Sequence record: PP777464.1
DNA length: 64,000 bases
Direction: 5' to 3' (one strand)
Source: Escherichia phage fEgEco12
The notes beneath the pieces are model-generated. The model ran no database searches. It was not told the DNA's origin and was given only the letters and a program-made list of their open reading frames with translations. Positions 43,585 to 62,660 of this stretch are shown here, piece after piece (positions within the stretch are counted from its first letter, which is position 1; each line of letters starts with the position of its first letter). Made by a program: the position numbers and the translations under genes.

Positions 43585-43604
43585 CCACCAGCTTGTGCTG
43601 GTGG
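43585..43604 (+). other. hairpin CCACCAGC(TTGT)GCTGGTGG containing a Chi octamer
   Basis: perfect 8-bp inverted repeat; GCTGGTGG at 43597-43604. Confidence 0.5.
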
Positions 43605-43740
43605 ATTCCCTCTAACAGTATTCAGTACTACATGATGGTCTTCATCCTCCTAGGGTAACATAGTGAGGGCTATGATGGCAGTACTGAATACTCCCTTTCA
43701 AAAGATAGATCTATGGTATAGTACTGACGGATTTTGGGTG

Positions 43741-43920
43741 TAGTTACCCTGGATGGATTTTGGGCGTAGATATGTCTAGCCCTCCAGAAGTCTGGAAGTA
43801 AAGATGGCTATCCATCTAGACGGCTAAACGGCTAGATTTCTGGATGGCTGGATGGCTGGATGGCTAGACGTTTGGACGGCTAAACGGCTAGATGGTTACA
43901 CGTCTGGAAGTATAGACGGC
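43741..43920. repeat. iteron-like repeat cluster (3x tandem TGGATGGC; 2x 19-bp GACGGCTAAACGGCTAGAT; 2x GTCTGGAAGTA) followed by AT-rich stretch
   Basis: direct repeats read from sequence; no ORF. Confidence 0.6.
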
Positions 43921-44551
43921 TAAATCAAAATTTTATTTTGTTTTTTCCAATAGTTCCCCTACCGCGTGGGGATAGTTTCCCCGCAGTATCTGGTGTTAGA
44001 TTTTTCTGAATCTGGAATCATTATCTTATAAACTGGGGGCAATGTCAACGGCCTGGACGGATATTTTTAAAAATTTTTTCAGTACTGAATTTTGGGCGTA
44101 ACTATGCACCCGGTGGGCTTGAGTCTTTCTCGACTTGATGGAACTATTATACAGTACTGAAAAAATAAAGCAATACCCTGGAAGCAAAAAAGTTTTAATT
44201 AATTTGCTTGCTATCCTGGGCCGGACTATGGTACTATATTTCAGTACTGAGAAAGTGCGTTTACCTGCTAGGGTGCGGGAGTGTATCCTTTTTTTATATC
44301 TTGAATTTTGGACGGATCTTCCCACCCCCTGGGGTATCCGCTTTCTCGCGTCTATGTAGTAATTATACGCTTTTTCAGGATCAAGTCAATACCTAAAAAC
44401 AAAATAATTGAAAATAATTTAACGCGTTTAAACGGCCTGTAAAGCCCTGGAATGATTGGAATGGTGCAAATGTATAGCTTATGTGTATTAATGCGTTAGA
44501 ATGCGTCTGAGGACGTTTTACGGGGTATAGGGATGATTTAGTGGATTGATT

Positions 44552-44638
44552 CAGTACTGAATAATAGTACTCCTATATAGAAAGATAGTTCCCCTGGATG
44601 ATTGCAGTACTGAATAATAGTACTCCTATATAGAAAGA
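44552..44638. repeat. 34-bp direct repeat CAGTACTGAATAATAGTACTCCTATATAGAAAGA x2 (period 53)
   Basis: copies at 44552-44585 and 44605-44638. Confidence 0.65.
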
Positions 44639-44666
44639 AAACTATTTTAAAAGTATTTGTAGAAAG

Positions 44667-44729
44667 TACTTGCACCGTACTGATAAAAGCGTATAATGTT
44701 TTACATCGAGAGCGGGAACACTTCCCGCT
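44667..44729 (+). promoter_or_regulatory. promoter + leader stem-loop module
   Basis: TTGCAC 44670-44675, TATAAT 44692-44697, hairpin AGCGGGAACACTTCCCGCT. Confidence 0.65.
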
Positions 44730-44752
44730 ACACATTAAGAGAGATTAAAACG

Positions 44753-45115
44753 ATGGCGACTCAAATCAATAAAATCATGCTTAACCTGGTAAACTTCCGC
44801 GATGAGATGAAAGGTCTTCCGGCTGAAACTGTAAAAATTCACATTGCAGCTTATCGGGAACTTATTGCAATGTTGCCGCTTAAGCGTGAACAATACGCCG
44901 CTACTTTGATGCTGGATTCAATGATCCATATAATGATCTCAAATGATTTGACGATGGTTTATCAGTATATGGGCGAAAATTTCGCGGTGTGTAGTAAGCC
45001 AGTACCAGGGATGGCAACAACTGAGGAATTGCACGGCTTAAACTTAAAACAAGATGCATGGGATAATATGCCTCGTTTCCTGGTATGGGCTGACAGTGGC
45101 AAAATTTACAAATAA
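44753..45115 (+). CDS. hypothetical protein (120 aa)
   Basis: ATG downstream of the module; track ORF N-terminus is promoter read-through. Confidence 0.55.
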   Translation: MATQINKIMLNLVNFRDEMKGLPAETVKIHIAAYRELIAMLPLKREQYAATLMLDSMIHIMISNDLTMVYQYMGENFAVCSKPVPGMATTEELHGLNLKQDAWDNMPRFLVWADSGKIYK

Positions 45116-45125
45116 GTTTAATAAA

Positions 45126-45188
45126 GTACTTGCAAACTATGTTTAATGGCGTATAATGTTTTACATCAGGTGGGGAATAGTTCCCCCC
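45126..45188 (+). promoter_or_regulatory. promoter + leader stem-loop module
   Basis: TTGCAA 45130-45135, TATAAT 45152-45157, hairpin GGGGAATAGTTCCCC. Confidence 0.65.
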
Positions 45189-45208
45189 TATATAAGAGGA
45201 TTAAAAAA

Positions 45209-45448
45209 ATGGCTAAATCAAAAATGTTCTTAGGTCACAAAAACAAAACTCATTGGAATGTAAGCCTGTGGATTAATAACGATGAGGGATTGTATCGGTT
45301 GGCCCTGGACTTTATTGCCGCCAATACTAATCGCAATGATGCGGCCCGTCATATGATGTTATTTTTAGAACAGACTGGACAAGATAAAACACCGGACGGA
45401 TTCAAATATAGCACTACTGCGATCCGTGCGGCGATGGTTGGAATGTAA
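45209..45448 (+). CDS. hypothetical protein (79 aa)
   Basis: ATG after leader hairpin and AGAGGA RBS. Confidence 0.5.
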   Translation: MAKSKMFLGHKNKTHWNVSLWINNDEGLYRLALDFIAANTNRNDAARHMMLFLEQTGQDKTPDGFKYSTTAIRAAMVGM

Positions 45449-45534
45449 TAGAATTTATTTAAAGTACTATCATTTTTTTGCGATAGTACTTTATAATAGT
45501 GTTTTATTCATACACCAACGATAAGGGCAACAGC

Positions 45535-45801
45535 ATGAATATTAAGTATTTTGCGACGCGTGAACAAGCTCGGATCGCCGCACGCCAGGACGGGGCAACG
45601 TTTAAAGATATGGGCGTACAATCGGAACGTGGTAAACGTTGGGCCATTGTAAAGCGTAGTACCGCCAGATCATTACAGTACTGGTTAGCGGCCTTAAAAA
45701 GTCCCGATAGTGTATCGCGTCGAGTGGTAGAAATAAAGCTCGACCGAAAGGGCAACCGCGTGACCGTGTACCGTACTAAAAAGATTGCAGTACTTGAATA
45801 A
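45535..45801 (+). CDS. hypothetical protein (88 aa), KYFATREQARIAAR family
   Basis: paralog of 57853-58248. Confidence 0.5.
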   Translation: MNIKYFATREQARIAARQDGATFKDMGVQSERGKRWAIVKRSTARSLQYWLAALKSPDSVSRRVVEIKLDRKGNRVTVYRTKKIAVLE

Positions 45802-45804
45802 AAA

Positions 45805-45868
45805 GTACTTGCAAACTATGTTTAAAGGCGTATAATGTTTTACATCGAGAGCGGGAACTCTTCCCGCC
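45805..45868 (+). promoter_or_regulatory. promoter + leader stem-loop module
   Basis: TTGCAA 45809-45814, TATAAT 45831-45836, hairpin GCGGGAACTCTTCCCGC. Confidence 0.65.
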
Positions 45869-45882
45869 TATAACCTGGAGTA

Positions 45883-46119
45883 ATGAAAATGACTAATATG
45901 TATATGACTGAAGTTAAAACCGTAAAAGATACTACCACGAATAAAACTACTTACTTACAGCGGATCTGTGGTGTATGGCAACGTATCAGCAAATCAAAGT
46001 ACTTTAAATTAACATCATATGCAAACCGTTCGGATTCATTCAGTACTGAAATAAAAGGTAATAAAGTACACCAATACGGCACTTATTATTATTATAGCCT
46101 GGACGCGATTGCAGTATAA
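45883..46119 (+). CDS. hypothetical protein (78 aa)
   Basis: ATG after GGAG RBS. Confidence 0.5.
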   Translation: MKMTNMYMTEVKTVKDTTTNKTTYLQRICGVWQRISKSKYFKLTSYANRSDSFSTEIKGNKVHQYGTYYYYSLDAIAV

Positions 46120-46149
46120 GCAGTTTACAAATCTTTACAATTGCCGGTA

Positions 46150-46178
46150 TTGACTTATTTTGTCAGTACTGGCATAAT
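46150..46178 (+). promoter_or_regulatory. orphan promoter TTGACT-17-CATAAT (rightward)
   Basis: TTGACT 46150-46155, CATAAT 46173-46178; no ORF downstream. Confidence 0.5.
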
Positions 46179-46293
46179 GTATTCATTGGCAGATAAGCCG
46201 TAGCCCATAGGGTGCGGGAGTGTATCTATAGAAAAAGTAGTTTATTACAGTTACAATTGTGCACCCGGTGGGTTAGCTGTTGTCATGGGGTAT
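46179..46293. ncRNA. candidate small RNA locus between convergent promoters
   Basis: contains TAGCCCATAGGGTGC (46201-46215) and its near reverse complement (46260-46276); no ORF. Confidence 0.3.
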
Positions 46294-46322
46294 ATTATGC
46301 CAGTACTTGATAATGCTGTCAA
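46294..46322 (-). promoter_or_regulatory. orphan promoter on minus strand (TTGACA-17-CATAAT), convergent with 46150
   Basis: reverse complement of 46294-46322 gives TTGACA and CATAAT boxes. Confidence 0.5.
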
Positions 46323-46364
46323 TACTTTTTTTTACTATTCAGTACTGAAAACTATTTTTAAAAA

Positions 46365-46396
46365 GTACTTGCAAACTATGTTTAAAGGCGTATAAT
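46365..46396 (+). promoter_or_regulatory. promoter (TTGCAA-16-TATAAT) upstream of a structured non-coding element
   Basis: TTGCAA 46369-46374, TATAAT 46391-46396. Confidence 0.6.
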
Positions 46397-46397
46397 G

Positions 46398-46486
46398 TTT
46401 TACATCAGGACGGGGAACGAAATAAGTAACTTCCCGTTAAGTAGCCCAGGAGTAAGGCACACGAAAAACTCCCCTGATAAAATAGT
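46398..46486 (+). ncRNA. candidate small RNA / structured leader (copy 1 of duplicated element)
   Basis: about 85 nt between two promoters, no ORF; near-identical copy at 56652-56738. Confidence 0.35.
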
Positions 46487-46514
46487 TTGACAAATGTTTT
46501 TAAAAGCGTATAAT
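46487..46514 (+). promoter_or_regulatory. promoter TTGACA-16-TATAAT for gene 46547
   Basis: TTGACA 46487-46492, TATAAT 46509-46514. Confidence 0.6.
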
Positions 46515-46546
46515 ACTTACATCAACTACTGAATGAGGGTTACAAA

Positions 46547-47158
46547 ATGAAAACTATCACTACTACTACTTTCGTTATGGATTTTTCTGAATTGAACGCA
46601 GAACAAAAAACGTCAGCTATCGAACTGGTTCGGGAACGTGAAAAAAACTCAAACGACAATTATTTTTCTGAAAGTGAAATTGAATACTATAAAGAAACAG
46701 TACTACCGGAATATGGCATTAATGACGCTGAAATACAATTCAGTGGCTTTTGGTCCCAGGGTGACGGTGCATCAATCAGTACTGACCACGTTGACGCAGT
46801 GAAGTTTTTACGCAAGGTAAGAGCATTAACTAAGTATCGCTCAATCCGTCACTTGCTGAATGAAGATGATTTGGCGATGAGTGTAAAGCGTTCGCACTCC
46901 CACTACTCGCATGAGAATACTGTAAGCGGGTACATTGAATCGGCTTACACTGATTTAACCGCAAAACAAGAAACGTTAGTTAATGAGCTTGAGGAACTAC
47001 TCACTGAAACTATTCGTGAATTATCCCGCAAGTTGTACCGTGATTTAGAGAATGCATATGAGGATCAATTCACTACTGAAAACATTACGGCACTGATTGA
47101 GGGTAACGAGTATCAATTCAATGTTATTGATGGCGTAGTGGAATCAATCGAATATTAA
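46547..47158 (+). CDS. hypothetical acidic protein (203 aa)
   Basis: ATG with GAGGG RBS. Confidence 0.6.
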   Translation: MKTITTTTFVMDFSELNAEQKTSAIELVREREKNSNDNYFSESEIEYYKETVLPEYGINDAEIQFSGFWSQGDGASISTDHVDAVKFLRKVRALTKYRSIRHLLNEDDLAMSVKRSHSHYSHENTVSGYIESAYTDLTAKQETLVNELEELLTETIRELSRKLYRDLENAYEDQFTTENITALIEGNEYQFNVIDGVVESIEY

Positions 47159-47166
47159 TTTAAAAA

Positions 47167-47230
47167 GTACTTGCAAACTAAGTTTAAAAGCGTATAATAC
47201 TTTATATCGAGAGCGGGAATAGTTCCCGCT
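47167..47230 (+). promoter_or_regulatory. promoter + leader stem-loop module
   Basis: TTGCAA 47171-47176, TATAAT 47193-47198, hairpin AGCGGGAATAGTTCCCGCT. Confidence 0.65.
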
Positions 47231-47250
47231 ACTAATGAGGAATACTACAA

Positions 47251-47415
47251 ATGAATACTTTTACCTTCGCTCAATTGAACGCCCTGGATGTATTGTCTGA
47301 TGCTTTGCGGGATGCAACTGAAAGCGGTTTATTTGACAATGTTGACATTCACCCTGATGTAATTAATAATTTTTGTGATGCTATCGCAGAAGTACTGGAA
47401 GATCTAAAAAAATAA
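47251..47415 (+). CDS. hypothetical small acidic protein (54 aa)
   Basis: ATG after module with GAGGAA RBS; below track cutoff. Confidence 0.45.
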   Translation: MNTFTFAQLNALDVLSDALRDATESGLFDNVDIHPDVINNFCDAIAEVLEDLKK

Positions 47416-47421
47416 TAGAAA

Positions 47422-47485
47422 GTACTTGCAATTAGTTTTCAGTACTGTATAATGGTTTACATCAAAGGGAGAAATGGTTCTCCCT
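47422..47485 (+). promoter_or_regulatory. promoter + leader stem-loop module
   Basis: TTGCAA 47426-47431, TATAAT 47448-47453, hairpin GGGAGAAATGGTTCTCCC. Confidence 0.65.
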
Positions 47486-47503
47486 GGTAATGAGGAAAAT
47501 ACA

Positions 47504-47725
47504 ATGGCTAATATCACTACTCTTTCCCAACTGGAAGCACTGGTTAAATCTATGCGGGAACATGCTGACAAAATCGGCGTACAAGATCCAGCCGTTTGCT
47601 TCTGCGACGAATTGAATGATGATACCCTGGTAATAGCAGAAGTCCAGGACGTTTCTAACTATTCCTCGCGTTACACTGGCGGCGTAGCAAATAAAGGTGA
47701 CTTCTGTTTATACCTTACAAAATAA
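47504..47725 (+). CDS. hypothetical protein (73 aa)
   Basis: ATG after GAGGAAA RBS. Confidence 0.5.
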   Translation: MANITTLSQLEALVKSMREHADKIGVQDPAVCFCDELNDDTLVIAEVQDVSNYSSRYTGGVANKGDFCLYLTK

Positions 47726-47728
47726 CAA

Positions 47729-47760
47729 CGCGGGGAGATAATAACTCCCCGTTACTTTTT
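47729..47760 (+). terminator. intrinsic terminator hairpin CGGGGAG..CTCCCCG + T-run
   Basis: 7-bp stem then TTACTTTTT. Confidence 0.6.
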
Positions 47761-47839
47761 CAGTACTGAATCATTTAATAGACGGATCTCGGCACCCGGT
47801 GGGTTAGTGACAGTTTCGTCTTGATGTAATAATTATGCC

Positions 47840-47876
47840 AGTACTGGATGCACTTGTCAACAACTATTTTTTCAAA
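47840..47876 (-). promoter_or_regulatory. orphan minus-strand promoter (TTGACA-17-CATAAT) reading into the 3' end of gene 47504
   Basis: reverse complement gives TTGACAAGTGCATCCAGTACTGGCATAAT; leader carries the TAACCCACCGGGTGC motif. Confidence 0.45.
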
Positions 47877-47890
47877 TACTTTTTATTAAA

Positions 47891-47950
47891 ATACTTGCAA
47901 TTAGTTTTTAAACGCGTATAATGTTTTGCATAGGGGGAGCGGTTCCCCTG
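47891..47950 (+). promoter_or_regulatory. promoter + leader stem-loop module
   Basis: TTGCAA 47895-47900, TATAAT 47917-47922, hairpin GGGGAGCGGTTCCCC. Confidence 0.65.
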
Positions 47951-47969
47951 GTAACTAAGGAATAAGAAA

Positions 47970-48206
47970 ATGCTTGAACAAATCAAATCAACGTCTGCGA
48001 ATGTAACGGGAACGGTAGTACACTTTACTAGTGATGAATCGCGGGGTGTACCCTATTGTGCTGTACATGTAAACACTGAGGGTAACTACTGGTTTACGGT
48101 TTACGGATCATATTCATTTGGACGGCCTGGGCATCAAAAAATTCTGGATAAAGTACAACCAACGGGTAAAAATATCACGGCTGAAATGTTTTATAAAAAA
48201 TCATAA
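47970..48206 (+). CDS. hypothetical protein (78 aa)
   Basis: ATG after AAGGAA RBS. Confidence 0.55.
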   Translation: MLEQIKSTSANVTGTVVHFTSDESRGVPYCAVHVNTEGNYWFTVYGSYSFGRPGHQKILDKVQPTGKNITAEMFYKKS

Positions 48207-48271
48207 AGTACTTGATAATAGTTTTTAGTACTGTATAATATTTTACATCGCAAGGGGGAGCGGTTCCCCCT
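48207..48271 (+). promoter_or_regulatory. promoter + leader stem-loop module
   Basis: CTTGAT -35, TATAAT 48234-48239, hairpin GGGGGAGCGGTTCCCCC. Confidence 0.6.
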
Positions 48272-48290
48272 GGTAACTAAGGATAATCAA

Positions 48291-48590
48291 ATGAAAATTG
48301 CAATCATCGCCCTGGCTTTATCTGTTTCCTCTTTCGCTGTTAATGCGTCATTAGATGTAAGTAGTGAAAAATTCATTCAGTGCACTGTTGCAATGACCGA
48401 TGAAAGAACTGGCGAGATTGTATTAAAGGATTTAGAGATCCAGCCGGAAGCATTTAAAAACGGCCCGTTCCATGAAGAAGACGAAAACGGTAGCACAACA
48501 ATTTATTATGATGCCAGTACTAAACGCGGTTCGGTCACTGTTATGGATACCGAGAAAGTAACTCATACCGGCGTTATTAATTGCCGTTGA
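48291..48590 (+). CDS. putative secreted protein (99 aa)
   Basis: signal-like N-term MKIAIIALALSVSSFAVNA. Confidence 0.55.
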   Translation: MKIAIIALALSVSSFAVNASLDVSSEKFIQCTVAMTDERTGEIVLKDLEIQPEAFKNGPFHEEDENGSTTIYYDASTKRGSVTVMDTEKVTHTGVINCR

Positions 48591-48611
48591 TAGATACTAC
48601 GGGGTAACATC

Positions 48612-48842
48612 ATGACTAAGCGAATTGTTTTACTTAACGAAAGCAGTACTACACAACTACTTAACGCCGTGCATTATGATATTGAAACGAGCGTTAATCT
48701 TATCAGTACTGTAGTTCTGTTGGACACTGGAAAGGTAGCCAATGATAAAGCGATTGCAGGTATACTAACGGATCTTGTGCCTGGTAGCAGTGCACCAATA
48801 ACGTTAAATGGTAAAGTGTTTAATATTTTACTCACTGATTAA
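48612..48842 (+). CDS. hypothetical protein (76 aa)
   Basis: ATG ORF. Confidence 0.5.
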   Translation: MTKRIVLLNESSTTQLLNAVHYDIETSVNLISTVVLLDTGKVANDKAIAGILTDLVPGSSAPITLNGKVFNILLTD

Positions 48843-48847
48843 GTACA

Positions 48848-48870
48848 TAGCCCACCTGGTGGGCTTTTTT
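48848..48870 (+). terminator. intrinsic terminator AGCCCACC/TGGTGGGCT + T6
   Basis: hairpin + TTTTTTG. Confidence 0.7.
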
Positions 48871-48924
48871 GTTTTTGTAGTATCGTAGTACTGAGATACT
48901 TTGAAAATAGTTTTAAAAAAGTAG

Positions 48925-48952
48925 TTGACATTACCACAGAAAAGCGTAGAAT
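48925..48952 (+). promoter_or_regulatory. promoter TTGACA-16-TAGAAT with long structured leader
   Basis: TTGACA 48925-48930; about 120-nt leader resembling the 46398 element. Confidence 0.5.
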
Positions 48953-49075
48953 GTATTACATCAAGACGGGGAGCACTAAGTAGACCGCCAGTAAGTCGAA
49001 CGAAAAACTGGACACGTCGAGAAAACTTTGATACACTAATAAACGTAAACTAAACTTTAATTGAGGATTTATAAA

Positions 49076-49558
49076 ATGGCTAATGTAAAATCATTCATCA
49101 AAGCACTGGTAGCAAATGAAACTAACGTCGCGGCTGAGATCCTGGCTGAACTGGATAACGATACCATGAAAGCGGTACGCAATAATTTTAACATCGCGTA
49201 CAGTACTGCGAAAGAACTACAAGCAAATAAAGCGGCAGAAATTGAAGCGGCAAAGGCGGCCCGTGAAGCAGAACTACAAGCAACAATCGAAAGTATTCAG
49301 GCGGCAGTAGTTGGATTGGATCTGGAAGTAGTTACAGAGATGGCACAAAAAGCCCTGGCGGTTAAGTATGGGGAAGACAAGCCAGAAGTAAAAGCCAAAA
49401 AATGGATTCAGGAACGCGTAGCGGTAGTACTGGACAACGGGGAAGAATATCTGATTCCGGTGCGTGGTAACTGTATTGCGGTAGTACTGGACGCGATTAA
49501 CTCCAGTGGTATGACTCGCGAGGAATGGATCGAAGCTCATCGCAAAGTTGAAGCATAA
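49076..49558 (+). CDS. hypothetical alanine-rich protein (160 aa)
   Basis: ATG after GAGGA RBS; track start 49061 is TTG. Confidence 0.55.
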   Translation: MANVKSFIKALVANETNVAAEILAELDNDTMKAVRNNFNIAYSTAKELQANKAAEIEAAKAAREAELQATIESIQAAVVGLDLEVVTEMAQKALAVKYGEDKPEVKAKKWIQERVAVVLDNGEEYLIPVRGNCIAVVLDAINSSGMTREEWIEAHRKVEA

Positions 49559-49578
49559 CAATTAAAGTACTGAATCAC

Positions 49579-56650: not shown

Positions 56651-56651
56651 G

Positions 56652-56738: not shown

Positions 56739-56766
56739 TTGACAATAGAAAGTAAACGAGTATAAT
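56739..56766 (+). promoter_or_regulatory. promoter TTGACA-16-TATAAT
   Basis: TTGACA 56739-56744, TATAAT 56761-56766. Confidence 0.6.
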
Positions 56767-56799
56767 ACTTACATCAACCACTGATAAGGAAACATTAAA

Positions 56800-57075: not shown

Positions 57076-57078
57076 GTA

Positions 57079-57140
57079 TTGACAAAGTATCTTAGTACTG
57101 TATAATAGTTTACATCAAGTGAGGGGAAACGGTTCCCCTC
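57079..57140 (+). promoter_or_regulatory. promoter + leader stem-loop module
   Basis: TTGACA 57079-57084, TATAAT 57101-57106, hairpin GAGGGGAAACGGTTCCCCTC. Confidence 0.65.
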
Positions 57141-57163
57141 CTAACAAAGAGAGAGAAATAAAA

Positions 57164-57346
57164 ATGGCTAAGTGCACTATCTGTAATAAAGAAATAGTAT
57201 TAGTTCCAAGTGCCCGTGAACGTGCCGCTCGGTTCGGTGGCAAAGCGTCAGACTATACAAAAATGTTTACTGCCCATACAGCTTGCCAGGTAGCAAAACG
57301 TTCACAAGAAAGCGTAGAATTAATGCGTAAACTTTCCAAAAAATAA
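57164..57346 (+). CDS. small protein with CxxC (60 aa)
   Basis: ATG after AGAGAGAGAAA RBS. Confidence 0.5.
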   Translation: MAKCTICNKEIVLVPSARERAARFGGKASDYTKMFTAHTACQVAKRSQESVELMRKLSKK

Positions 57347-57349
57347 GTA

Positions 57350-57411
57350 TTGACAAAGTATCTTAGTACTGTATAATAGTTTACATCAAGCGAGGGGAAT
57401 AGTTCCCCTCC
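57350..57411 (+). promoter_or_regulatory. promoter + leader stem-loop module (duplicate of 57079-57140)
   Basis: TTGACA 57350-57355, TATAAT 57372-57377, hairpin GAGGGGAATAGTTCCCCTC. Confidence 0.65.
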
Positions 57412-57433
57412 TAACAAAGAGAGAGAAATAAAA

Positions 57434-57757
57434 ATGGCTATGATCCTTGCCCAGAAAGTAGAATTGAAAATTGTAACCTCCTTTGACATTAACGTTAATC
57501 GGTGGACTGATTCACACGGCAATACTTACCACTCTTGCTACGTGTCTGCGTTAATTGGCGACCGCTGGGAAGACCTGGGACACGAAACCTTTACATACGG
57601 TTACGGTACACAAGGCGAATACACGGGCTTGGAGATCATTAAAGAAACCGTTATAGGTTTCAACCCGAAAGAAAAAGTTATTCATCGCATCGAGGAAGAG
57701 ATCAACAAAGAAATAACAGTTCGCTACCACGATGTAAAACGTAAGAAAGACATGTAA
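57434..57757 (+). CDS. hypothetical protein (107 aa), paralog of 50603-50926
   Basis: shared NRWTDSHGNTYHSC block. Confidence 0.55.
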   Translation: MAMILAQKVELKIVTSFDINVNRWTDSHGNTYHSCYVSALIGDRWEDLGHETFTYGYGTQGEYTGLEIIKETVIGFNPKEKVIHRIEEEINKEITVRYHDVKRKKDM

Positions 57758-57788
57758 TAGAATCCATTTAAAGTACTATTTGACATTG

Positions 57789-57817
57789 CCCAGATAGTAC
57801 TTTATAATAGACTCTAA
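57789..57817 (+). promoter_or_regulatory. promoter TTGACA-17-TATAAT
   Basis: TTGACA 57789-57794, TATAAT 57812-57817. Confidence 0.6.
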
Positions 57818-57852
57818 CTTGTAGTACTAACTCAACTAATAGGATGTATACC

Positions 57853-58248
57853 ATGATTACTAAATTCTACGCTACCCGTGAAGCTGCCCGTATTGTTGCA
57901 CGCGAGGAAGGAGCAGCATTTAAAGACATGGGCAAAGATGCAACGAAAGGACAACGCTGGGCCGTACAGTTCAAAGAAATCTCTGATATTGTGAATTCAC
58001 CTGAGCCAGTACTGACAGCAGCAGAACTAAAACGAGCGGATATGCTGGCGGCAATACTTGACGCACAAGATGAGTTTATCGCTGATTCTGATATCAAAGT
58101 ACAGGTAAACCACACCGCATGGACTCACGCGGATCACCTGGCAAACCTTAAGCGTCCAAGTGAACTGATTCGCAACCAGAAAGAGATCCGACATGATCGT
58201 AAGGGTAATCGTGTAACAGTATACAGTAAACGCCGCCAGGTTATCTAA
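57853..58248 (+). CDS. hypothetical protein (131 aa), paralog of 45535-45801
   Basis: shared KFYATREAARI...RKGNRVTVY blocks. Confidence 0.55.
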   Translation: MITKFYATREAARIVAREEGAAFKDMGKDATKGQRWAVQFKEISDIVNSPEPVLTAAELKRADMLAAILDAQDEFIADSDIKVQVNHTAWTHADHLANLKRPSELIRNQKEIRHDRKGNRVTVYSKRRQVI

Positions 58249-58270
58249 TAACTTGCAGTACTAACAACAC

Positions 58271-58295
58271 GGCGGGATCAGTTCCCGCCTTTTTT
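58271..58295 (+). terminator. intrinsic terminator GGCGGGATCAGTTCCCGCC + T6
   Basis: hairpin + TTTTTT. Confidence 0.7.
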
Positions 58296-58309
58296 ATAGG
58301 ACAAACAAA

Positions 58310-58564
58310 ATGATTAAGGTTCAACTATATAAAGATAACATCTTACGGGTACACTATAAAGCACCTCAGAGAATCATCACAAAGGCCGTACAGCTTGCTA
58401 ATGAGTTTATTAATGGTAACCTATTACCTAGGAAGTTAAGCAACGGGAAACTGCGTGTAATCGACGTGGACACTAACAACAGGATAGTAATCGAGAACAC
58501 AGGAAAGATAAACCTTTATGAGCATCAACAATACAATAAGAAAATAAAACTAATATCACGTTGA
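58310..58564 (+). CDS. hypothetical protein (84 aa)
   Basis: ATG ORF. Confidence 0.5.
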   Translation: MIKVQLYKDNILRVHYKAPQRIITKAVQLANEFINGNLLPRKLSNGKLRVIDVDTNNRIVIENTGKINLYEHQQYNKKIKLISR

Positions 58565-58589
58565 CAGTACTCAATTGTTTTAGTACTAT
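58561..58589 (+). promoter_or_regulatory. promoter TTGACA-17-TACTAT
   Basis: TTGACA 58561-58566; duplicated at 58837. Confidence 0.55.
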
Positions 58590-58617
58590 GTACACATACC
58601 AACACGGGAGAAACAAA

Positions 58618-58836
58618 ATGAAATTATCTAAAATCGAAAAGAAAACTATTGATGAAGCAGTTAAGCACGGTTATACCTTTCGTAATGATTCACATTTTAC
58701 CAATTTTCAACAAGGGTATCGTACTATTAAAAAACTAATTGACAAAGGTTTATTAGTTGAAGTCAATAACGGTAACGGTATCGAGTATCAACCAACACAG
58801 GACGCATTTTATTTTAAGAAATATAATATTATCTAA
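58618..58836 (+). CDS. hypothetical protein (72 aa)
   Basis: ATG after GGGAGAAA RBS; track ORF begins at TTG within the promoter. Confidence 0.5.
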   Translation: MKLSKIEKKTIDEAVKHGYTFRNDSHFTNFQQGYRTIKKLIDKGLLVEVNNGNGIEYQPTQDAFYFKKYNII

Positions 58837-58865
58837 TTGACAGTACTCAAATGTTTTAGTACTAT
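58837..58865 (+). promoter_or_regulatory. promoter TTGACA-17-TACTAT (duplicate of 58561)
   Basis: TTGACA 58837-58842. Confidence 0.55.
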
Positions 58866-58893
58866 ATGTACATACCAACACGGGGGAAACAAA

Positions 58894-59136
58894 ATGATTA
58901 CTTTAGAAAAACGTATCAAAGAAACTACATCGCTGGTGGAACTGTTAACAGTACTCAAATGTAAAACAACACCATTCAGCACGCCGGACTTTATTAATAT
59001 GGTTGATGTTAATGGTCGCTATCGTATCACGGTCGAACAAGGAGCGGCGAAAGTATTCAGTACTAAAAACACGAAGGAAGTGATCCACGCCGTTAATGTT
59101 AAAAAAGTAGTTGCCATTGATAGTAAAGTACTGTAA
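58894..59136 (+). CDS. hypothetical protein (80 aa)
   Basis: ATG after GGGGGAAA RBS. Confidence 0.5.
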   Translation: MITLEKRIKETTSLVELLTVLKCKTTPFSTPDFINMVDVNGRYRITVEQGAAKVFSTKNTKEVIHAVNVKKVVAIDSKVL

Positions 59137-59167
59137 TATAGTTTCATTAACTCAAGGAGAACATGCA

Positions 59168-59752
59168 ATGCGTAATTATACTAAATTCATCCGTACACTG
59201 TCAGAAATGGAAACCAACAAAGAGATCCTTTCAGCTTGTCGGTTAGCTGGCCTGGAGATCATCGGTGCTGGTTCTTCCCGTATAGTTTTCGCTTTAAATG
59301 ATCGGTTAGTGATTAAGGTCGCGAATTGTGATGCGGGTGTAGAACAAAATGAAACTGAATGTAAGGTATGGAATTTTTTAGACTATGACCGCCCTCAATT
59401 GAAACAGTACTTTGCAAAGGTGCATATGCATTTATGCGATCCTGATAATATGTTTATCGTTATGGATCGGTTGAGTACTGCAAGCAAAGGCAGTGTGAAG
59501 CACGTAAACGCGTGCAATGAATTAAAGTACAATATTAAACGTAATGCAATCGAACGCCAGCACCGCTTTGCTGATGCACTACAACACGTTGATGATACAT
59601 TATCAACACTAACGATAAGAGATATCAGAAAACAGAATATCGGCCAGGATCGTAATGGACTTATTAAAGTACTTGATTACGGTTTAACCAGCAATATCTG
59701 GAATCAGTACTATAAAAAGCGTGATGTGGCAGCAAGTAAGGTAACACGATAA
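59168..59752 (+). CDS. protein-kinase-like protein (ePK-fold motifs)
   Basis: GAGSSRIV glycine loop, VIKV lysine, IRDIRKQN catalytic-loop-like, DYG (DFG-like). Confidence 0.55.
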   Translation: MRNYTKFIRTLSEMETNKEILSACRLAGLEIIGAGSSRIVFALNDRLVIKVANCDAGVEQNETECKVWNFLDYDRPQLKQYFAKVHMHLCDPDNMFIVMDRLSTASKGSVKHVNACNELKYNIKRNAIERQHRFADALQHVDDTLSTLTIRDIRKQNIGQDRNGLIKVLDYGLTSNIWNQYYKKRDVAASKVTR

Positions 59753-59767
59753 AAAAAGATTAAAAAA

Positions 59768-59800
59768 GGGATTGACTCCGGTCAGTCCCTTTGCTATTAT
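59768..59800 (+). terminator. composite terminator-promoter (GGGATTGACTCCGGTCAGTCCC; -10 TATTAT)
   Basis: same element as 56499 and 62520. Confidence 0.65.
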
Positions 59801-59893
59801 ATATCCATTGAGAGATAACTCACTGACCCATAGGGTGCGGAAGTGTATCTATTATATAAGTATTCAGTACTGAAAACTATTTTTAAAAAAGTA
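59801..59893 (+). ncRNA. candidate short transcript with ACCCATAGGGTGCGGAAGTGTATC motif
   Basis: no ORF before next promoter. Confidence 0.3.
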
Positions 59894-59954
59894 CTTGCAT
59901 TGTACTTAGAATCAAGTATAATGTTTTATATCGAGAGGGGGAATGGTTCTCCCT
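59894..59954 (+). promoter_or_regulatory. promoter + leader stem-loop module
   Basis: TTGCAT 59894-59899, TATAAT 59917-59922, hairpin GGGGGAATGGTTCTCCC. Confidence 0.65.
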
Positions 59955-59973
59955 GGCAATAAGGAATAAAATC

Positions 59974-60195
59974 ATGACTACAATGACTTGCATTTACGCT
60001 TCTAATCTTCTGAATGATGCGGCCTTTAATGTTGATTCAGAATATCAATGTTATCGGGATGAAAATAAAAAAGTTTTTGTAGTTGATAATAATGGTTTCC
60101 ATATTGAATTACAATCCGGCTTCACTGGTGTTGATGGTAAATCAGTATGGGGCGTACAGGATGATAAAGGCACATATCATTTTAAACGTAATTAA
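59974..60195 (+). CDS. hypothetical protein (73 aa)
   Basis: ATG after AAGGAATAAA RBS. Confidence 0.55.
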   Translation: MTTMTCIYASNLLNDAAFNVDSEYQCYRDENKKVFVVDNNGFHIELQSGFTGVDGKSVWGVQDDKGTYHFKRN

Positions 60196-60198
60196 GTA

Positions 60199-60257
60199 TT
60201 GACAAAGTATATCAGTACTGTATAATAGTTTACATCAAGGGGAGAATAGTTCTCCCC
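60199..60257 (+). promoter_or_regulatory. promoter + leader stem-loop module
   Basis: TTGACA 60199-60204, TATAAT 60221-60226, hairpin GGGGAGAATAGTTCTCCCC. Confidence 0.65.
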
Positions 60258-60278
60258 GATACTAAAAGGAATAAAATC

Positions 60279-60683
60279 ATGACTACTACTAATCAAGCTC
60301 GGTCCATCGCCAACGATAAAAATCATGCTGCAATGGTCGCTGGTTACATTGAAGCTATGCAATTCAGTACTGTACACAATGAGAACGGCGATTACCTGGA
60401 AGATTATGAGTTATCTGATGAAGCACGTCAAGCGGCGGTGATTGCATGTTCTCGCTTCATTGAGAAACACGGTAATGATCTGGAAGTAGTTCGCGGTATG
60501 TTTATTGATTACGGTTATGAGCAAGCTGGTCATGATCTGTTCCTTACCCGCGAAGGTCACGGAACTGGTTTTTGGGATCGTGGTTTAGGTCACTATGGCG
60601 ATGTATTCACGAAGTACTGCGAAGAAATCAACGTTTGCGATCCCTATGTAGGCGATGATAATCTAATCTATATGGGCGAATAA
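60279..60683 (+). CDS. hypothetical protein (134 aa)
   Basis: ATG after AAAGGAA RBS. Confidence 0.55.
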   Translation: MTTTNQARSIANDKNHAAMVAGYIEAMQFSTVHNENGDYLEDYELSDEARQAAVIACSRFIEKHGNDLEVVRGMFIDYGYEQAGHDLFLTREGHGTGFWDRGLGHYGDVFTKYCEEINVCDPYVGDDNLIYMGE

Positions 60684-60689
60684 AAGTAT

Positions 60690-60748
60690 TTGACAAAGTA
60701 TATCAGTACTGTATAATAGTTTACATCAAGGGGAGAACTATTCTCCCC
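60690..60748 (+). promoter_or_regulatory. promoter + leader stem-loop module
   Basis: TTGACA 60690-60695, TATAAT 60712-60717, hairpin GGGGAGAACTATTCTCCCC. Confidence 0.65.
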
Positions 60749-60772
60749 ACACCAATAAAAGGAAACAAAATT

Positions 60773-61045
60773 ATGTCCAGCTACTCCGCTACTATGATCA
60801 TTAAAGATATGAACGGTAATCCTACTTCTGCTGGTGGATCATTTGGAAATATTAACTTAGATGGGCGGTTATCCATGCAATCAGCCATCGATACAGCGAA
60901 AGAAGTTTTTAAGAATGAATGTACTGTTAGTAAGCTGGATTATATGGGATTCGCTATCGAGAAAACTACTCGTTTTGTGAACTACAAAAATCCACTGATG
61001 ATTGATACTAACCTGAAAGCTAACGAAGTGGGGTACTTATTATGA
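60773..61045 (+). CDS. hypothetical protein (90 aa)
   Basis: ATG after AAAGGAAA RBS. Confidence 0.55.
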   Translation: MSSYSATMIIKDMNGNPTSAGGSFGNINLDGRLSMQSAIDTAKEVFKNECTVSKLDYMGFAIEKTTRFVNYKNPLMIDTNLKANEVGYLL

Positions 61046-61233
61046 CAGTAGAAGAAGTTAAAAAAGTACTGGCAGTACTACGATATCATAATCATTGCAA
61101 GGTGAAGAATGATCCTGATTATCTTGATTCATCCCTGGAGGAAGACACCTTGAACGCTATAAGCCATATGCAGACATTAGCAAAGCGTATGACTGAAAAG
61201 AACATGCCGGACTATATCGGAAATAAAATTTAA
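61042..61233 (+). CDS. hypothetical protein (63 aa)
   Basis: ATGA overlap. Confidence 0.5.
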   Translation: MTVEEVKKVLAVLRYHNHCKVKNDPDYLDSSLEEDTLNAISHMQTLAKRMTEKNMPDYIGNKI

Positions 61234-61239
61234 AAAGTA

Positions 61240-61302
61240 CTTGCATTGTAGTTAGATTAACGTATAATGTTTTATATCGAGAGGGGGAAATGGTTTCCCC
61301 TC
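61240..61302 (+). promoter_or_regulatory. promoter + leader stem-loop module
   Basis: TTGCAT 61240-61245, TATAAT 61263-61268, hairpin GAGGGGGAAATGGTTTCCCCTC. Confidence 0.65.
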
Positions 61303-61320
61303 AAGTCCAGGAGATACACC

Positions 61321-61584
61321 ATGAACACTATCGAAATCACTATCAATGCACACGTATACGACAACGTAGTACTGCAAACTACTATGACCGCCAATGATAC
61401 CAGTACTTTGCGGAATACTGTTATTAGTGCCGTATGTGCCGCTATCGGTGATGTCGCCCTGGAAAATGCAAAACACGTAAACGATGGTTTCACTATGTGC
61501 AAACGTGATAACGCAAAACATATCATCGTGGAAGGTTACGGCGGTGTAGAATTTAATGTTTATATGAAAAAAGTACTTGCATAA
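61321..61584 (+). CDS. hypothetical protein (87 aa)
   Basis: ATG after CAGGAGA RBS. Confidence 0.55.
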   Translation: MNTIEITINAHVYDNVVLQTTMTANDTSTLRNTVISAVCAAIGDVALENAKHVNDGFTMCKRDNAKHIIVEGYGGVEFNVYMKKVLA

Positions 61585-61632
61585 TAACTAAAACAAAGTA
61601 TAATGTTTTGCATAGGGGGAGATATCCTCCCC
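61577..61632 (+). promoter_or_regulatory. promoter + leader stem-loop module
   Basis: TTGCAT 61577-61582, TATAAT 61599-61604, hairpin GGGGGAGATATCCTCCCCC. Confidence 0.65.
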
Positions 61633-61651
61633 CACTAAAAGGAGTAATAAA

Positions 61652-61876
61652 ATGGCTAACTTTGATGAACTGATGCGGGAAGTAGCTAACCTGGCAGAAG
61701 AGAAGAAATCATTCGATTCTATCTATAACACCGCTCACCGTGATTCAGTACTGGCATGTAACCAGGATCAAAAAGATGAACTAATCGCCACCTATCATGA
61801 AGCATGGAAGTACTACCGACAATGGGAGAAAGAAGAAAGTGAGTCTACCATTGACGGCCTCAATAATCTAATCTAA
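61652..61876 (+). CDS. hypothetical protein (74 aa)
   Basis: ATG after AAGGAG RBS. Confidence 0.55.
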   Translation: MANFDELMREVANLAEEKKSFDSIYNTAHRDSVLACNQDQKDELIATYHEAWKYYRQWEKEESESTIDGLNNLI

Positions 61877-61888
61877 AAGTTTTATTTC

Positions 61889-61924
61889 AGTACTATTGAC
61901 ATAGCTTGATAGTACTGATGTAAT
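61889..61924 (+). promoter_or_regulatory. palindrome-embedded promoter (AGTACTATTGACATAGCTTGATAGTACT)
   Basis: TTGACA 61896-61901; weak -10. Confidence 0.5.
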
Positions 61925-61952
61925 AACTTTACTAACTACAAGGGGAAACATA

Positions 61953-62210
61953 ATGGATCAGTTCACACAATATCGGGTAAATCCACAAGCTATGGCCTAC
62001 GTAGAAGACCATAAAACGTTACCAGTACTGCAACCAGTTAAAGGCCATATCTATCGTGCAATGTCGTGGTGTACGGCCCAGGATGGCTATAAAACCGTAG
62101 CCGTGGGTATGTATTGCGGTGATGGTGAATGGTTTGATCCAAATAATCCGGTAGCCATTGACAGTACTGAAAAAATGAAATGGGCCGACTACATCGAAGA
62201 TATTTCATAA
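61953..62210 (+). CDS. hypothetical protein (85 aa)
   Basis: ATG after AAGGGGAAA RBS. Confidence 0.55.
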   Translation: MDQFTQYRVNPQAMAYVEDHKTLPVLQPVKGHIYRAMSWCTAQDGYKTVAVGMYCGDGEWFDPNNPVAIDSTEKMKWADYIEDIS

Positions 62211-62217
62211 AAACTAT

Positions 62218-62279
62218 TTGACAGTACTAACCAATAATGTATAATGTTTTACATAGAGCGGGGGAATAGTTCTCCCGCC
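62218..62279 (+). promoter_or_regulatory. promoter + leader stem-loop module
   Basis: TTGACA 62218-62223, TATAAT 62240-62245, hairpin GCGGGGGAATAGTTCTCCCGC. Confidence 0.65.
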
Positions 62280-62300
62280 AATAGTTTGGAGTAAAACATT

Positions 62301-62501
62301 ATGTCTATCGCTATCGCCCTGGTTGAAGTACTGAAAGAAGCTAAAGCCAACCAGATCGACGTAAAGATCCAGGAACTACAAAACGGCTTAATCGGCTGTA
62401 CTTGTACCGCTGGTGGAGCGGCAGACTATCGAGAACACGAATCACTCGAATCACTGGTTCGGTATCTTACCATGATCGTTGATGATTGGAGAATCATCTA
62501 A
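62301..62501 (+). CDS. hypothetical protein (66 aa)
   Basis: ATG after TGGAG RBS. Confidence 0.55.
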   Translation: MSIAIALVEVLKEAKANQIDVKIQELQNGLIGCTCTAGGAADYREHESLESLVRYLTMIVDDWRII

Positions 62502-62519
62502 CAAAAAAGAATAAAAAAA

Positions 62520-62552
62520 GGGATTGACTCCGGTCAGTCCCTTTGCTATTAT
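62520..62552 (+). terminator. composite terminator-promoter (GGGATTGACTCCGGTCAGTCCC; -10 TATTAT)
   Basis: third identical right-arm copy. Confidence 0.65.
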
Positions 62553-62660
62553 ATACGCATAGACAAAAACTAGCCCACAGGGTGCATAGGTGTATCCAAA
62601 ATATATAGTTAATAACGGTGAGTAACTATCTGCTGGTGGAACTAAAACTATTAATAAAAA
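62553..62660 (+). ncRNA. candidate short transcript with CTAGCCCACAGGGTGCATAGGTGTATC motif and Chi octamer
   Basis: no ORF; GCTGGTGG 62632-62639. Confidence 0.3.

Follow-up and report, generated by a model that had tools for sequence, protein, structure and literature searches.

The right arm of this DNA contains many copies of the octamer GCTGGTGG, nearly all pointing the same way, which raises the question of whether they are host Chi sites maintained for use at the genome ends or are present for other reasons. The window analysed here, that is the whole stretch of 64,000 nt, comes from an Asteriusvirus jumbo coliphage (121Q/fEgEco12 type). The host reported for fEgEco12 is avian pathogenic E. 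coli (PMC13070987), and the closest relatives, at 95-99% identity, are E. coli phages. Because the host of these relatives is E. coli, whose RecBCD is established to recognise GCTGGTGG, the octamer is the cognate Chi sequence.

Chi counts in the window and in the terminal repeat

An exact search found 20 copies in the window, all of them the exact enteric octamer 5'-GCTGGTGG-3', where 0.5-2.8 are expected. Dinucleotide-shuffled sequences contained a mean of 0.68 copies (maximum 4), and Markov models of orders 0-4 predicted 0.47-2.8. The 167 remaining words with this composition occur about once each on average (largest count 12), and one-mismatch neighbours that are not GGT repeats occur 0-4 times each. 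Counted on both strands against shuffled and Markov controls, the excess thus held.

Twelve copies (10 +, 2 -) lie in the direct terminal repeat (DTR; 43008..64000, + strand), where Markov models predict 0.2-0.46. The excess there is about 25-60 times chance, bearing out the right-arm enrichment that had been proposed from the sequence, and the same 167 words average 0.32 copies within the repeat, with a maximum of 5. The DTR was delimited by alignment with the relative WPEC3, and its 20,993 bp are exactly the length mapped for fEgEco12 by PhageTerm and restriction digests (PMC13070987). In WPEC3, positions 1-22503 and 361629-384131 are 100% identical (a 22,503-bp repeat); the record end (384131) aligns to window position 43008 and position 1 aligns to window position 64000. 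At 64000 the genome physically ends on the right, and 43008 marks the inner edge of this repeat copy and corresponds to the left terminus in the other one. The identical ends and mapped termini that mark an Asteriusvirus long DTR were both found, the second copy lying outside the window. The repeat is an early-gene region with about 40 small + strand genes and many consensus sigma-70 promoters; AGTACT, promoter modules and further repeated signals are abundant there as well. Chi density is 1 per 1.75 kb (0.57/kb) in the repeat of the window; in WPEC3 it is 0.533/kb in the DTR compared with 0.056/kb across the 339 kb of unique sequence (Poisson p=1e-8), so that the sites are clustered at the packaged ends.

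Of the repeat-borne copies, seven lie between genes and five within coding sequence, each set being larger than composition- or codon-aware nulls predict. The coding copies number 5 compared with 0.94 expected by a codon-aware null (P=0.001), although four of the five fall in the common frame GCT-GGT-GG. The seven non-coding copies occupy about 6.4 kb, for which our own estimate from base composition is about 0.06.

Outside the repeat, the left arm has two isolated + copies, at 2526..2533 inside an ORF and at 13058-13065, compared with 0.24 expected. Six - copies (23092, 23230, 26377, 26635, 26890 and 36555) fall among 14 annotated RCC1-repeat paralogs on the - strand (21550..38017). All six are in frame GCT-GGT-GG, and a synonymous-codon shuffle predicts 3.1 copies; they are for the most part a side product of Gly-rich coding and lie outside the terminal array. 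The positions listed in the original prediction were all recovered, with 2525 corrected to 2526, but the list was incomplete: it lacked the + copies at 55335, 58932, 60830 and 62409, which are inside its own interval, the + copy at 13058, and the six - copies of the RCC1 array.

Sequence contexts and recurrence in other lineages

The repeat-borne copies occupy varied positions. Five are in small ORFs: 62409..62416 in ORF 62301-62501 (read as Ala-Gly-Gly), 60830..60837 in ORF 60773-61045, 55335..55342 in ORF 55242-55430 and 54385..54392 in a 48-codon ORF (54340-54486) upstream of a DksA-like gene, all + and in frame GCT-GGT-GG, and 58932..58939 (+) in ORF 58837/58891-59136, in frame CTG-GTG-G. 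The copy at 54385 is lost in 121Q. Two intergenic + copies lie in a repeated module. The first (62632..62639, 1,361 bp from the right terminus) is inside a 17-nt insertion about 25 nt upstream of a AAAAAAGTATTGACA promoter, and the second (56584..56591, about 30 nt upstream of a AAAAAAGTACTTGCA promoter) is a local replacement of the module consensus. Only two of the four paralogous modules carry Chi, at differing positions, and their comparison indicates that Chi was gained independently in the two.

The remaining copies are associated with inverted sequences. A hairpin on the + strand (53860..53885), AGCCCACTGGT-TAAC-GCTGGTGGGCT, has Chi (53875-53882) as its 3' arm and reads as Chi on that strand only, because its stem contains G.U pairs; fENko-Kae01 has a hairpin with the same loop and a compensatory stem change. 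An inverted Chi pair (49625..49696; - copy 49626-49633, + copy 49688-49695) forms a 9-bp stem around 54 nt and sits between a terminator (49580-49606) and the next promoter. A perfect inverted pair, CCACCAGC-TTGT-GCTGGTGG (43585..43604; 8-bp stem, 4-nt loop), lies in a gene-poor stretch of the DTR, 577 bp in from the boundary that becomes the left terminus in the second copy. Across 26 Chi sites compared, no sequence is shared beyond the 8-mer, and at the divergence available within Asteriusvirus orthologous Chi sites are conserved no better than their flanks.

A Chi-rich terminal or early region was also found in four further jumbo-phage lineages. In the two with a PhageTerm-mapped repeat, fENko-Kae01 has 14 Chi (12+/2-) in 19.7 kb compared with 2 in the next 30 kb, and Muenster has 8 (7+/1-) in 20 kb compared with none in the next 30 kb. 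XbC2 has 9 in a 17.5-kb early region compared with 3 in 27.5 kb, and EJP2 has 4 in 9.3 kb compared with 1 in 30.7 kb; for these two, whose repeat boundaries are unannotated, the cut points were chosen by us. Reverse Chi are found roughly 0.5 kb and roughly 6.6-7.0 kb in from the left terminus both in the window and in fENko-Kae01, where an inverted pair 483 bp from that end is the positional counterpart of 43585..43604.

These contexts could also suggest that the octamer is bound or processed by a phage or host factor that has no connection with RecBCD and acts, for example, in transcription, packaging or replication, and that its identity with Chi is a coincidence. The two inverted pairs and the terminator-like hairpin in the window, the four promoter spacers that contain Chi in fENko-Kae01, and the abundance of other repeated signals in the region are consistent with such a factor. 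So is the enrichment in XbC2, whose recorded host is Xanthomonas; under a RecBCD-based reading, this enrichment fits only if the natural host, or the Chi of the host, is enteric-like. However, the sites have only the 8 bases in common and are found in promoter spacers, upstream of promoters, in a hairpin arm, in an insertion and, in four cases, in frame within coding sequence. The word is exactly the host Chi, at a density equal to that of P1 and the LLS-class phages discussed below. Furthermore, in 121Q the 49626/49688 pair has a mutated - arm without compensation in the other arm, yet the + Chi is kept. An unrelated factor is therefore an unlikely explanation.

Orientation relative to the genome ends

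RecBCD entering at a double-strand end approaches Chi from its 3' side, and the repeat-borne copies are arranged to suit this approach. Since window position 64000 is a physical end, the ten + copies, which face it from distances of 1.4-20.4 kb, are correctly oriented for RecBCD entering there, as comparison with the mapped genome end confirmed. The two - copies point towards the opposite terminus (43008 in its second copy): the one in pair 43585..43604 at 0.58 kb and the one at 49626 at 6.6 kb (6,618 bp). These reverse copies had been regarded as hairpin partners; the inverted pairs do exist, but because the - copies face the other physical end, pairing is probably not their only role.

The near-single orientation noted earlier was recovered in the right arm (10+:2-), but part of it reflects strand composition. 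All right-arm genes are on the + strand and G-rich octamers of the same composition are already 69% +, and the orientation bias is therefore only modestly above baseline: pooled counts are 36:7 (84% +; one-sided p=0.026), and 25 of the 36 + copies pooled from four phages fall in the right-hand half of the repeat. Across the whole window, Chi orientation tracks GC skew and gene direction, and the GC-skew minimum, at about 42 kb, is next to the repeat boundary.

This covariation would be expected if RecBCD acts but selection favours the repair of broken forks or rolling-circle tails during replication, with Chi co-oriented with forks, like the Chi of bacterial chromosomes, rather than placed for virion ends. 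The unique region of WPEC3, where 14 - and 5 + Chi accompany annotated genes mostly on the - strand (read from the tables and not a per-site test), appears to point the same way. Fork repair nevertheless leaves unexplained why the repeat is about tenfold denser in Chi than the other 339 kb, which is also replicated, and why two lineages have reverse Chi some 0.5 kb in from the opposite terminus. As the main source of selection it seems improbable.

Known systems and the proposed role of the array

P1 and its relatives P7 and D6 carry about 50 Chi, with the highest density in or close to the terminal redundancy, and P1 is reported to need RecBCD for growth (bioRxiv 10.1101/2021.07.08.451572; PMC12315714). 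P1 resembles this phage in having dense Chi at packaged ends or terminal repeats (1 per 1.9 kb, and 1 per 1.75 kb here), and the role proposed for it, RecBCD/RecA recombination of terminal repeats to give circles or concatemers, is the one proposed here. Unlike this phage, P1 is temperate, its headful packaging from pac leaves variable ends, and it has Chi on both strands (31/19); here a virulent 375-kb jumbo myovirus has fixed ends and an exact 21-kb repeat that holds its Chi.

Zheng et al. (2025, PMC12315714) describe the LLS-class lambdoid phages as 'no Rec module, high Chi', and a RecBCD-dependent role of Chi has been argued for both them and P1. They share with this phage a terminal Chi cluster mostly oriented for RecBCD entry at one end (20:3, and 10:2 here) at a similar density (1 per 1.86 kb, and 1 per 1.75 kb here). 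As in P1 and LLS phages, Chi density here is far above that expected from composition and not below that of the host (1 per 1.75 kb compared with 4.6 kb). LLS phages have cos ends, whereas this phage has long direct repeats. The class is also defined by the absence of phage recombination genes and of a RecBCD inhibitor, whereas the annotation of WPEC3 includes a UvsX-like recombinase and UvsW-, gp46/47- and gp49-superfamily proteins. Because WPEC3 encodes these proteins, we do not place the phage in the LLS class, although its Chi array may work in the LLS manner. The WPEC3 recombination proteins run against the published correlation between lack of a Rec module and high Chi.

The E. coli chromosome carries the same octamer about once per 4.6 kb, skewed to the leading strand, and chromosomal and phage Chi are alike co-directional with GC skew and transcription. 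The phage repeat is 2.6-fold denser than the host, in DNA of 38.5% G+C, and its Chi array is restricted to some 6% of the genome. Phage T5 also has a long exact terminal repeat (10.2 kb) and early genes behind strong host-type promoters. Its repeat holds pre-early genes and serves first-step transfer, and the two-step injection and nicks of T5 are without a demonstrated counterpart in this phage. The T5 repeat contains two Chi, both facing the right end, and the next 40 kb contain none; the density is about one third of that here (0.2 compared with 0.57 per kb), numbers too small to call. Dabert et al. in 1992 and Kuzminov et al. in 1994 reportedly found ExoV degradation to be attenuated, with a requirement for RecA, by a properly oriented Chi close to a free end. 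Such protection of linear or rolling-circle plasmids concerned engineered constructs, whereas the array described here is natural, multi-site and located at native genome ends.

Taken together, the sequence evidence suggests, with a probability of roughly 0.65, that the repeat-borne octamers are genuine host Chi accumulated by selection to handle RecBCD at both DNA ends, and that the array probably turns RecBCD into an enzyme that spares and recombines them. RecBCD would load on a free end, unwinding and degrading inward. From the right terminus it would meet ten properly oriented Chi between 1.4 and 20.4 kb, and from the other terminus two, at 0.58 and 6.6 kb; with 20-40% recognition per Chi, ten in series would be recognised with 89-99% probability before the repeat is consumed, and two with 36-64%. 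At Chi, RecBCD would cease degrading the 3' strand and load RecA. Because degradation would stay inside duplicated DNA, no unique sequence would be lost. The RecA-coated 3' tail could then undergo strand invasion into the second copy of the repeat, located either on that molecule or on a sister genome; circles or concatemers would result, and replication would be primed. As a benefit, recombination between repeats is no less likely than simple protection.

That RecBCD reaches the ends, that Chi is active there and that the benefit combines protection with repeat recombination is what we infer. A virion end cap or an unrecognised early RecBCD inhibitor may instead shield the ends; no RecBCD inhibitor was recognisable among the 40 repeat-encoded proteins, most early proteins being without known function. 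Several observations count against this reading: the left terminus is faced by only two Chi, and the orientation bias exceeds the strand baseline only modestly, and to these are added the WPEC3 recombination proteins, the enrichment in XbC2 and the conservation of orthologous Chi at no more than the level of their flanks.

The benefit of Chi could also lie in immune evasion, with Chi near the ends leaving fewer degradation fragments for CRISPR spacer acquisition or for other end-sensing defences; Chi is known to limit RecBCD-dependent spacer acquisition (Levy et al. 2015). The evidence for this is identical to that for protection and recombination of the ends, and the sequence data do not separate the two. 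By itself, though, immune evasion does not explain the confinement to duplicated DNA, and CRISPR adaptation is weakly active in many E. coli strains; we consider it quite unlikely. Finally, an origin of the repeat-borne copies without selection, as a side effect of base composition, codon usage, G-rich strand skew or repeat-unit amplification, has on its side the RCC1-array copies, the common coding frame and the 69% strand baseline, but is effectively refuted by the null models (at most 0.46 copies expected), the word controls, the intergenic excess, the unrelated flanks and the module gains at different positions.

None of the outcomes that would have told against the original prediction (no enrichment, no orientation bias, a host with a different Chi) was found, and its RecBCD/Chi interpretation is supported. 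If selection for handling RecBCD at the DNA ends is indeed responsible, these virulent jumbo phages would use a strategy like that of P1 and the LLS phages while encoding a recombinase of their own.

Chi copies in the terminal repeat

An exact search of both strands of the 64-kb window finds 20 copies of Chi, the recognition octamer of host RecBCD (GCTGGTGG on the + strand, CCACCAGC when reverse-oriented), versus 0.68 expected under dinucleotide shuffles (maximum 4) and 0.47-2.8 under Markov models of order 0-4. The enrichment of Chi claimed in the original prediction therefore withstands shuffle and Markov controls and is stronger than claimed. All nine copies that it listed were found again (with position 2525 corrected to 2526), but the list was incomplete, lacking + copies at 55335, 58932, 60830 and 62409 within its own interval, a + copy at 13058, and six - copies between 23092 and 36555. 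The outlier is the octamer itself, not G-rich words generally: the 168 words with the composition of Chi have a mean of 1.04 copies, the runner-up has 12, and the one-mismatch neighbours of Chi, GGTGGTGG excepted, have 0-4 each.

The window (35% G+C) belongs to a jumbo myovirus of the 121Q/PBECO4 group (Asteriusvirus), relatives of which infect E. coli. The complete sequence of the relative WPEC3 was assembled. Its first 22,503 bp recur at the genome end with 100% identity, position 1 aligns to window 64000 and the last base aligns to window 43008. This makes window 43008-64000 the direct terminal repeat, and its 20,993 bp are exactly the length determined for fEgEco12 by PhageTerm and restriction digests (PMC13070987). 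Most probably, then, the window represents the last 64 kb of the fEgEco12 genome or of one nearly identical to it. Terminal redundancies of ~20 kb have also been reported for G17 (PMC6563267). What had previously been described only as a right arm is thus this repeat, and on its right side the window stops at a physical DNA terminus.

Twelve Chi copies (10 +, 2 -) fall in this repeat, versus 0.2-0.46 expected. In WPEC3, Chi density is 0.533/kb in the repeat and 0.056/kb in the 339-kb unique part, and the 12 copies observed in its repeat compare with 1.26 expected at the unique-region rate (Poisson p=1e-8). Seven of the 12 copies in the window repeat are intergenic (43585/43597, 49626/49688, 53875, 56584 and 62632), in ~6.4 kb of non-coding DNA for which composition predicts ~0.06. 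The other five lie inside small ORFs, where four are read as GCT-GGT-GG, and exceed the 0.94 expected from a synonymous-codon shuffle that holds protein sequence and codon usage constant (P=0.001).

The same shuffle was applied to the RCC1 array (21550-38017, - strand), which carries the six - copies outside the repeat. Here 6 copies are observed versus 3.1 expected; the codon null accounts for about half, and all six are in-frame and Gly-rich, so they were rejected as part of the terminal phenomenon and are mostly a by-product of Gly-Ala-Gly-Gly coding. The array consists of 14 tandem paralogous genes of ~380 codons each, annotated in relatives as RCC1-repeat or 'regulator of chromosome condensation' proteins, with copy number and gene order varying among relatives. 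Between the array and the repeat, at ~38100-41500 (homologue WPEC3 23024-27208), relatives have ~20 head-to-tail genes of ~60 codons each, annotated as unknown function.

The gene content of the repeat is early-type, with ~40 small genes, all on the + strand, preceded by an exceptionally dense set of host-type promoters: window 43000-62999 contains 12 perfect sigma-70 promoters (TTGACA-16/17-TATAAT) and ~30 near-consensus ones, without exception on the + strand. The small early proteins encoded at 45209-63848, 40 in number, yield Pfam matches to a DksA/TraR zinc finger, a GNAT acetyltransferase, a ParE-like toxin domain and DUF7249/7247/7217, as well as a weak protein-kinase match, and all of their PHROG matches are 'unknown function'. 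A gene-poor stretch of ~3.5 kb (~41500-45200) straddles the repeat boundary at 43008, coincides with the GC-skew minimum and a switch in gene orientation, and is crowded with the palindrome CAGTACTG. It is a candidate site for packaging or terminus recognition, and replication may perhaps start there too.

AGTACT words head the octamer over-representation list for the window, far ahead of Chi. AGTACT occurs 290 times (~22 expected), often adjoining a -35 box (AAAAAGTACTTGCA/TTGACA) or sitting in promoter spacers, and 26 of the 73 copies of CAGTACTG lie at 40-48 kb (40001-48000) around the repeat boundary. This palindrome, which may be a regulator-binding or modification site, is hugely enriched in other jumbo phages as well (61 copies in the Muenster repeat, 28 in XbC2 and 65 in 40 kb of EJP2).

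Contexts of individual sites

The surroundings of the Chi copies are diverse. An inverted pair forms a perfect 8-bp stem with a 4-nt loop at 43585-43604; a 9-bp stem at 49625-49696 encloses 54 nt and carries Chi in both arms; a hairpin at 53860-53885 has Chi as its 3' arm, with G.U pairs that leave Chi on one strand only; and the copies at 56584 and 62632 lie upstream of promoters. Across the 26 repeat-borne copies of the window and the Klebsiella phage fENko-Kae01, the common sequence is the eight bases only, with flank information of at most 0.7 bit.

Four paralogous intergenic modules of ~200 nt (52490-52710, 56490-56680, 59758-59975 and 62510-62720) each comprise a 12-bp hairpin (AAAGGGATTGACTCCGGTCAGTCCCTTT) overlapping a TTGACT...TATTAT promoter, followed by TAGCCCACAGGGTGCATA, an A-tract and a second promoter. 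Only two of the four contain Chi, in one case by local replacement and in the other within a 17-nt insertion, so these sites were gained independently rather than copied. Selection thus appears to act on the octamer itself.

Two other lines of evidence were set aside. The stem at 49625-49696 has a fold z-score of -2.7, but was rejected as a conserved structured RNA since 121Q has one arm mutated without compensation and Rfam is blank; no Rfam family matched, and no tRNA gene was found, anywhere in the 64-kb window. Asteriusvirus relatives mostly keep the Chi sites, within flanks that are 86-100% identical, but per-site conservation was dropped as evidence of selection because retention is not clearly beyond neutral at this divergence.

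Recurrence and orientation in other jumbo phages

Chi is similarly concentrated in jumbo phages of further lineages. In fENko-Kae01 (~29% ANI with fEgEco12), the repeat at 1-19,736, annotated from PhageTerm, holds 14 copies (12 +, 2 -) versus 2 in the next 30 kb. The PhageTerm repeat of Klebsiella phage Muenster (Alcyoneusvirus), at 1-20,030, holds 8 (7 +, 1 -), with 0 in the next 30 kb. XbC2 (Mimasvirus) has 9 copies in its first 17.5 kb versus 3 in the following 27.5 kb, and EJP2 has 4 in a 9.3 kb early region versus 1 in the following 30.7 kb; in both of these the repeat is not annotated and the cut was chosen from gene layout, making the contrast correspondingly less firm. T5 (NC_005859.1), a classical coliphage with a long repeat, exhibits a faint echo of this pattern at one third the density, with two copies in its 10.2-kb repeat and 0 in the next 40 kb. 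Both T5 copies (8127 and 8689) are on the + strand, are the sole two in the first 50 kb, and lie just ahead of the annotated injection stop signal.

The repeats of the window and fENko-Kae01 are barely alignable outside promoter blocks and termini, yet they share the same Chi layout. The + copies lie 1.4-20.4 kb (window) and 0.4-19.2 kb (fENko-Kae01) from the right end, and exactly two - copies per repeat lie 577 and 6,618 bp, and 483 and 7,012 bp, respectively, from the left end. The - copy closest to the left end sits in both cases in an inverted pair, CCACCAGC-TTGT-GCTGGTGG in the window and the same with TTAA in fENko-Kae01. The hairpin loop TGGTTAACGCTGGTGG is also present in both phages, and its stem is changed in a compensatory way in fENko-Kae01; the sole reverse copy of Muenster lies at 6.45 kb. 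An IMG/VR scan for the inverted pair CCACCAGC-N4-GCTGGTGG was uninformative on jumbo phages: among 46 loci, 121Q is the only related one, and the others are mostly high-GC contigs.

XbC2 (OP292654.1; ~38% G+C and 7 +/2 - copies of GCTGGTGG in 1-17500), with Xanthomonas vesicatoria as its recorded host, was uninformative as a non-enteric negative control, since GCTGGTGG is enriched there too; the Pseudomonas-type GCTGGCGC was not found in XbC2. Either the natural host range is enteric, or the octamer serves something else. The recorded host may differ from the evolutionary host; the best-known member of its genus, Mimasvirus, is Cronobacter phage GAP32.

RecBCD entering from the right recognises top-strand GCTGGTGG (PMC12315714); therefore, the 10 + copies of the window repeat face the right terminus and the 2 - copies face the left. 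Four repeats pooled give a +:- ratio of 36:7 (p=9e-6 versus 0.5), and 25 of the 36 + copies lie in the right-end half. However, all repeat genes are on the + strand, and the 167 words of the same composition are already distributed 100:44 (69% +), a baseline that Chi exceeds with a one-sided p of 0.026. The orientation bias described in the original prediction is thus present in the pooled counts but only modestly beyond strand composition. Orientation supports the RecBCD model, while the strong evidence is density and localisation.

A possible role for RecBCD at the genome ends

RecBCD loads on a duplex end, then unwinds and degrades the DNA until Chi is recognised in the 3'-ended strand, past which it leaves that strand intact and loads RecA. 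If each site is recognised 20-40% of the time, the probability that Chi is recognised before the whole repeat has been degraded would be 89-99% for entry at the right end (ten sites) and 36-64% for entry at the left end (two sites). Only redundant DNA would be degraded, because the Chi array lies entirely within duplicated DNA. For the RecA-coated tail, the second copy of the repeat would offer a homologous target, and circular or concatemeric forms would result. Such forms were postulated by the authors of fEgEco12 on general grounds, without mention of Chi (PMC13070987). Beyond the presence of the sites, their location at the ends and their correct orientation, all of these steps are inferred. 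The earlier proposal that Chi could protect phage DNA from RecBCD acting from the right-hand end is supported by density, localisation at the physical end and orientation. No RecBCD inhibitor was recognisable among the 40 repeat-encoded proteins, and no T4 gp2-like DNA end protector was recognised in a limited scan of ten WPEC3 proteins near head-completion and tail genes.

Terminally clustered, oriented Chi is known from LLS-type lambdoid phages, in which 20 of 23 sites are oriented and the density is 1 per 1.86 kb (PMC12315714), and P1 and relatives have 50 Chi at 1 per 1.9 kb, most tightly packed within the terminal redundancy or close to it (PMC12315714; bioRxiv 10.1101/2021.07.08.451572). 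In both, the sites are interpreted as promoting RecBCD-dependent recombination for concatemer formation (PMC12315714). The window repeat has the same density (1 per 1.75 kb). However, the LLS class is marked by the lack of a phage recombination module, whereas WPEC3 encodes UvsX-, UvsW-, gp46/47- and gp49-like proteins. The sites would work as in P1 and LLS phages, but here the phages are virulent and jumbo, encode a recombinase of their own and have fixed ends with an exact 21-kb repeat. No publication on Chi in Asteriusvirus or any other jumbo phage turned up in literature searches.

Tentatively, with a probability of roughly 0.3, virulent jumbo phages of the 121Q/RaK2/GAP32 supergroup may depend on host RecBCD and Chi at the very start of infection, despite their own UvsX-type machinery. 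The ~20-kb repeat would then serve as a sacrificial buffer that repairs itself: an array of many Chi sites faces one physical end, and a conserved inverted pair lies ~0.5 kb from the other. RecBCD attack would be turned into recombination between the repeats, through which the genome becomes circular or concatenated ahead of the synthesis of any phage protein. If so, RecBCD would act in a pro-viral way here, and the end that is first to be exposed could be predicted from the asymmetry of the array.

Chi-rich ends have been known for temperate P1-like and lambdoid phages, where they are explained by missing recombination genes. Finding the same Chi density, strictly confined to mapped 20-kb repeats, in five recombinase-carrying virulent jumbo lineages broadens the phenomenon to phages very unlike those two groups and challenges, or partly contradicts, the rule that such phages lack a Rec module. 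It also suggests a rationale for the unusual length of the repeats: their DNA is redundant, and within it a switch of RecBCD from degradation to recombination would be safe. For phage-therapy candidates of Asteriusvirus, it points to a host factor that may influence how efficiently they infect.
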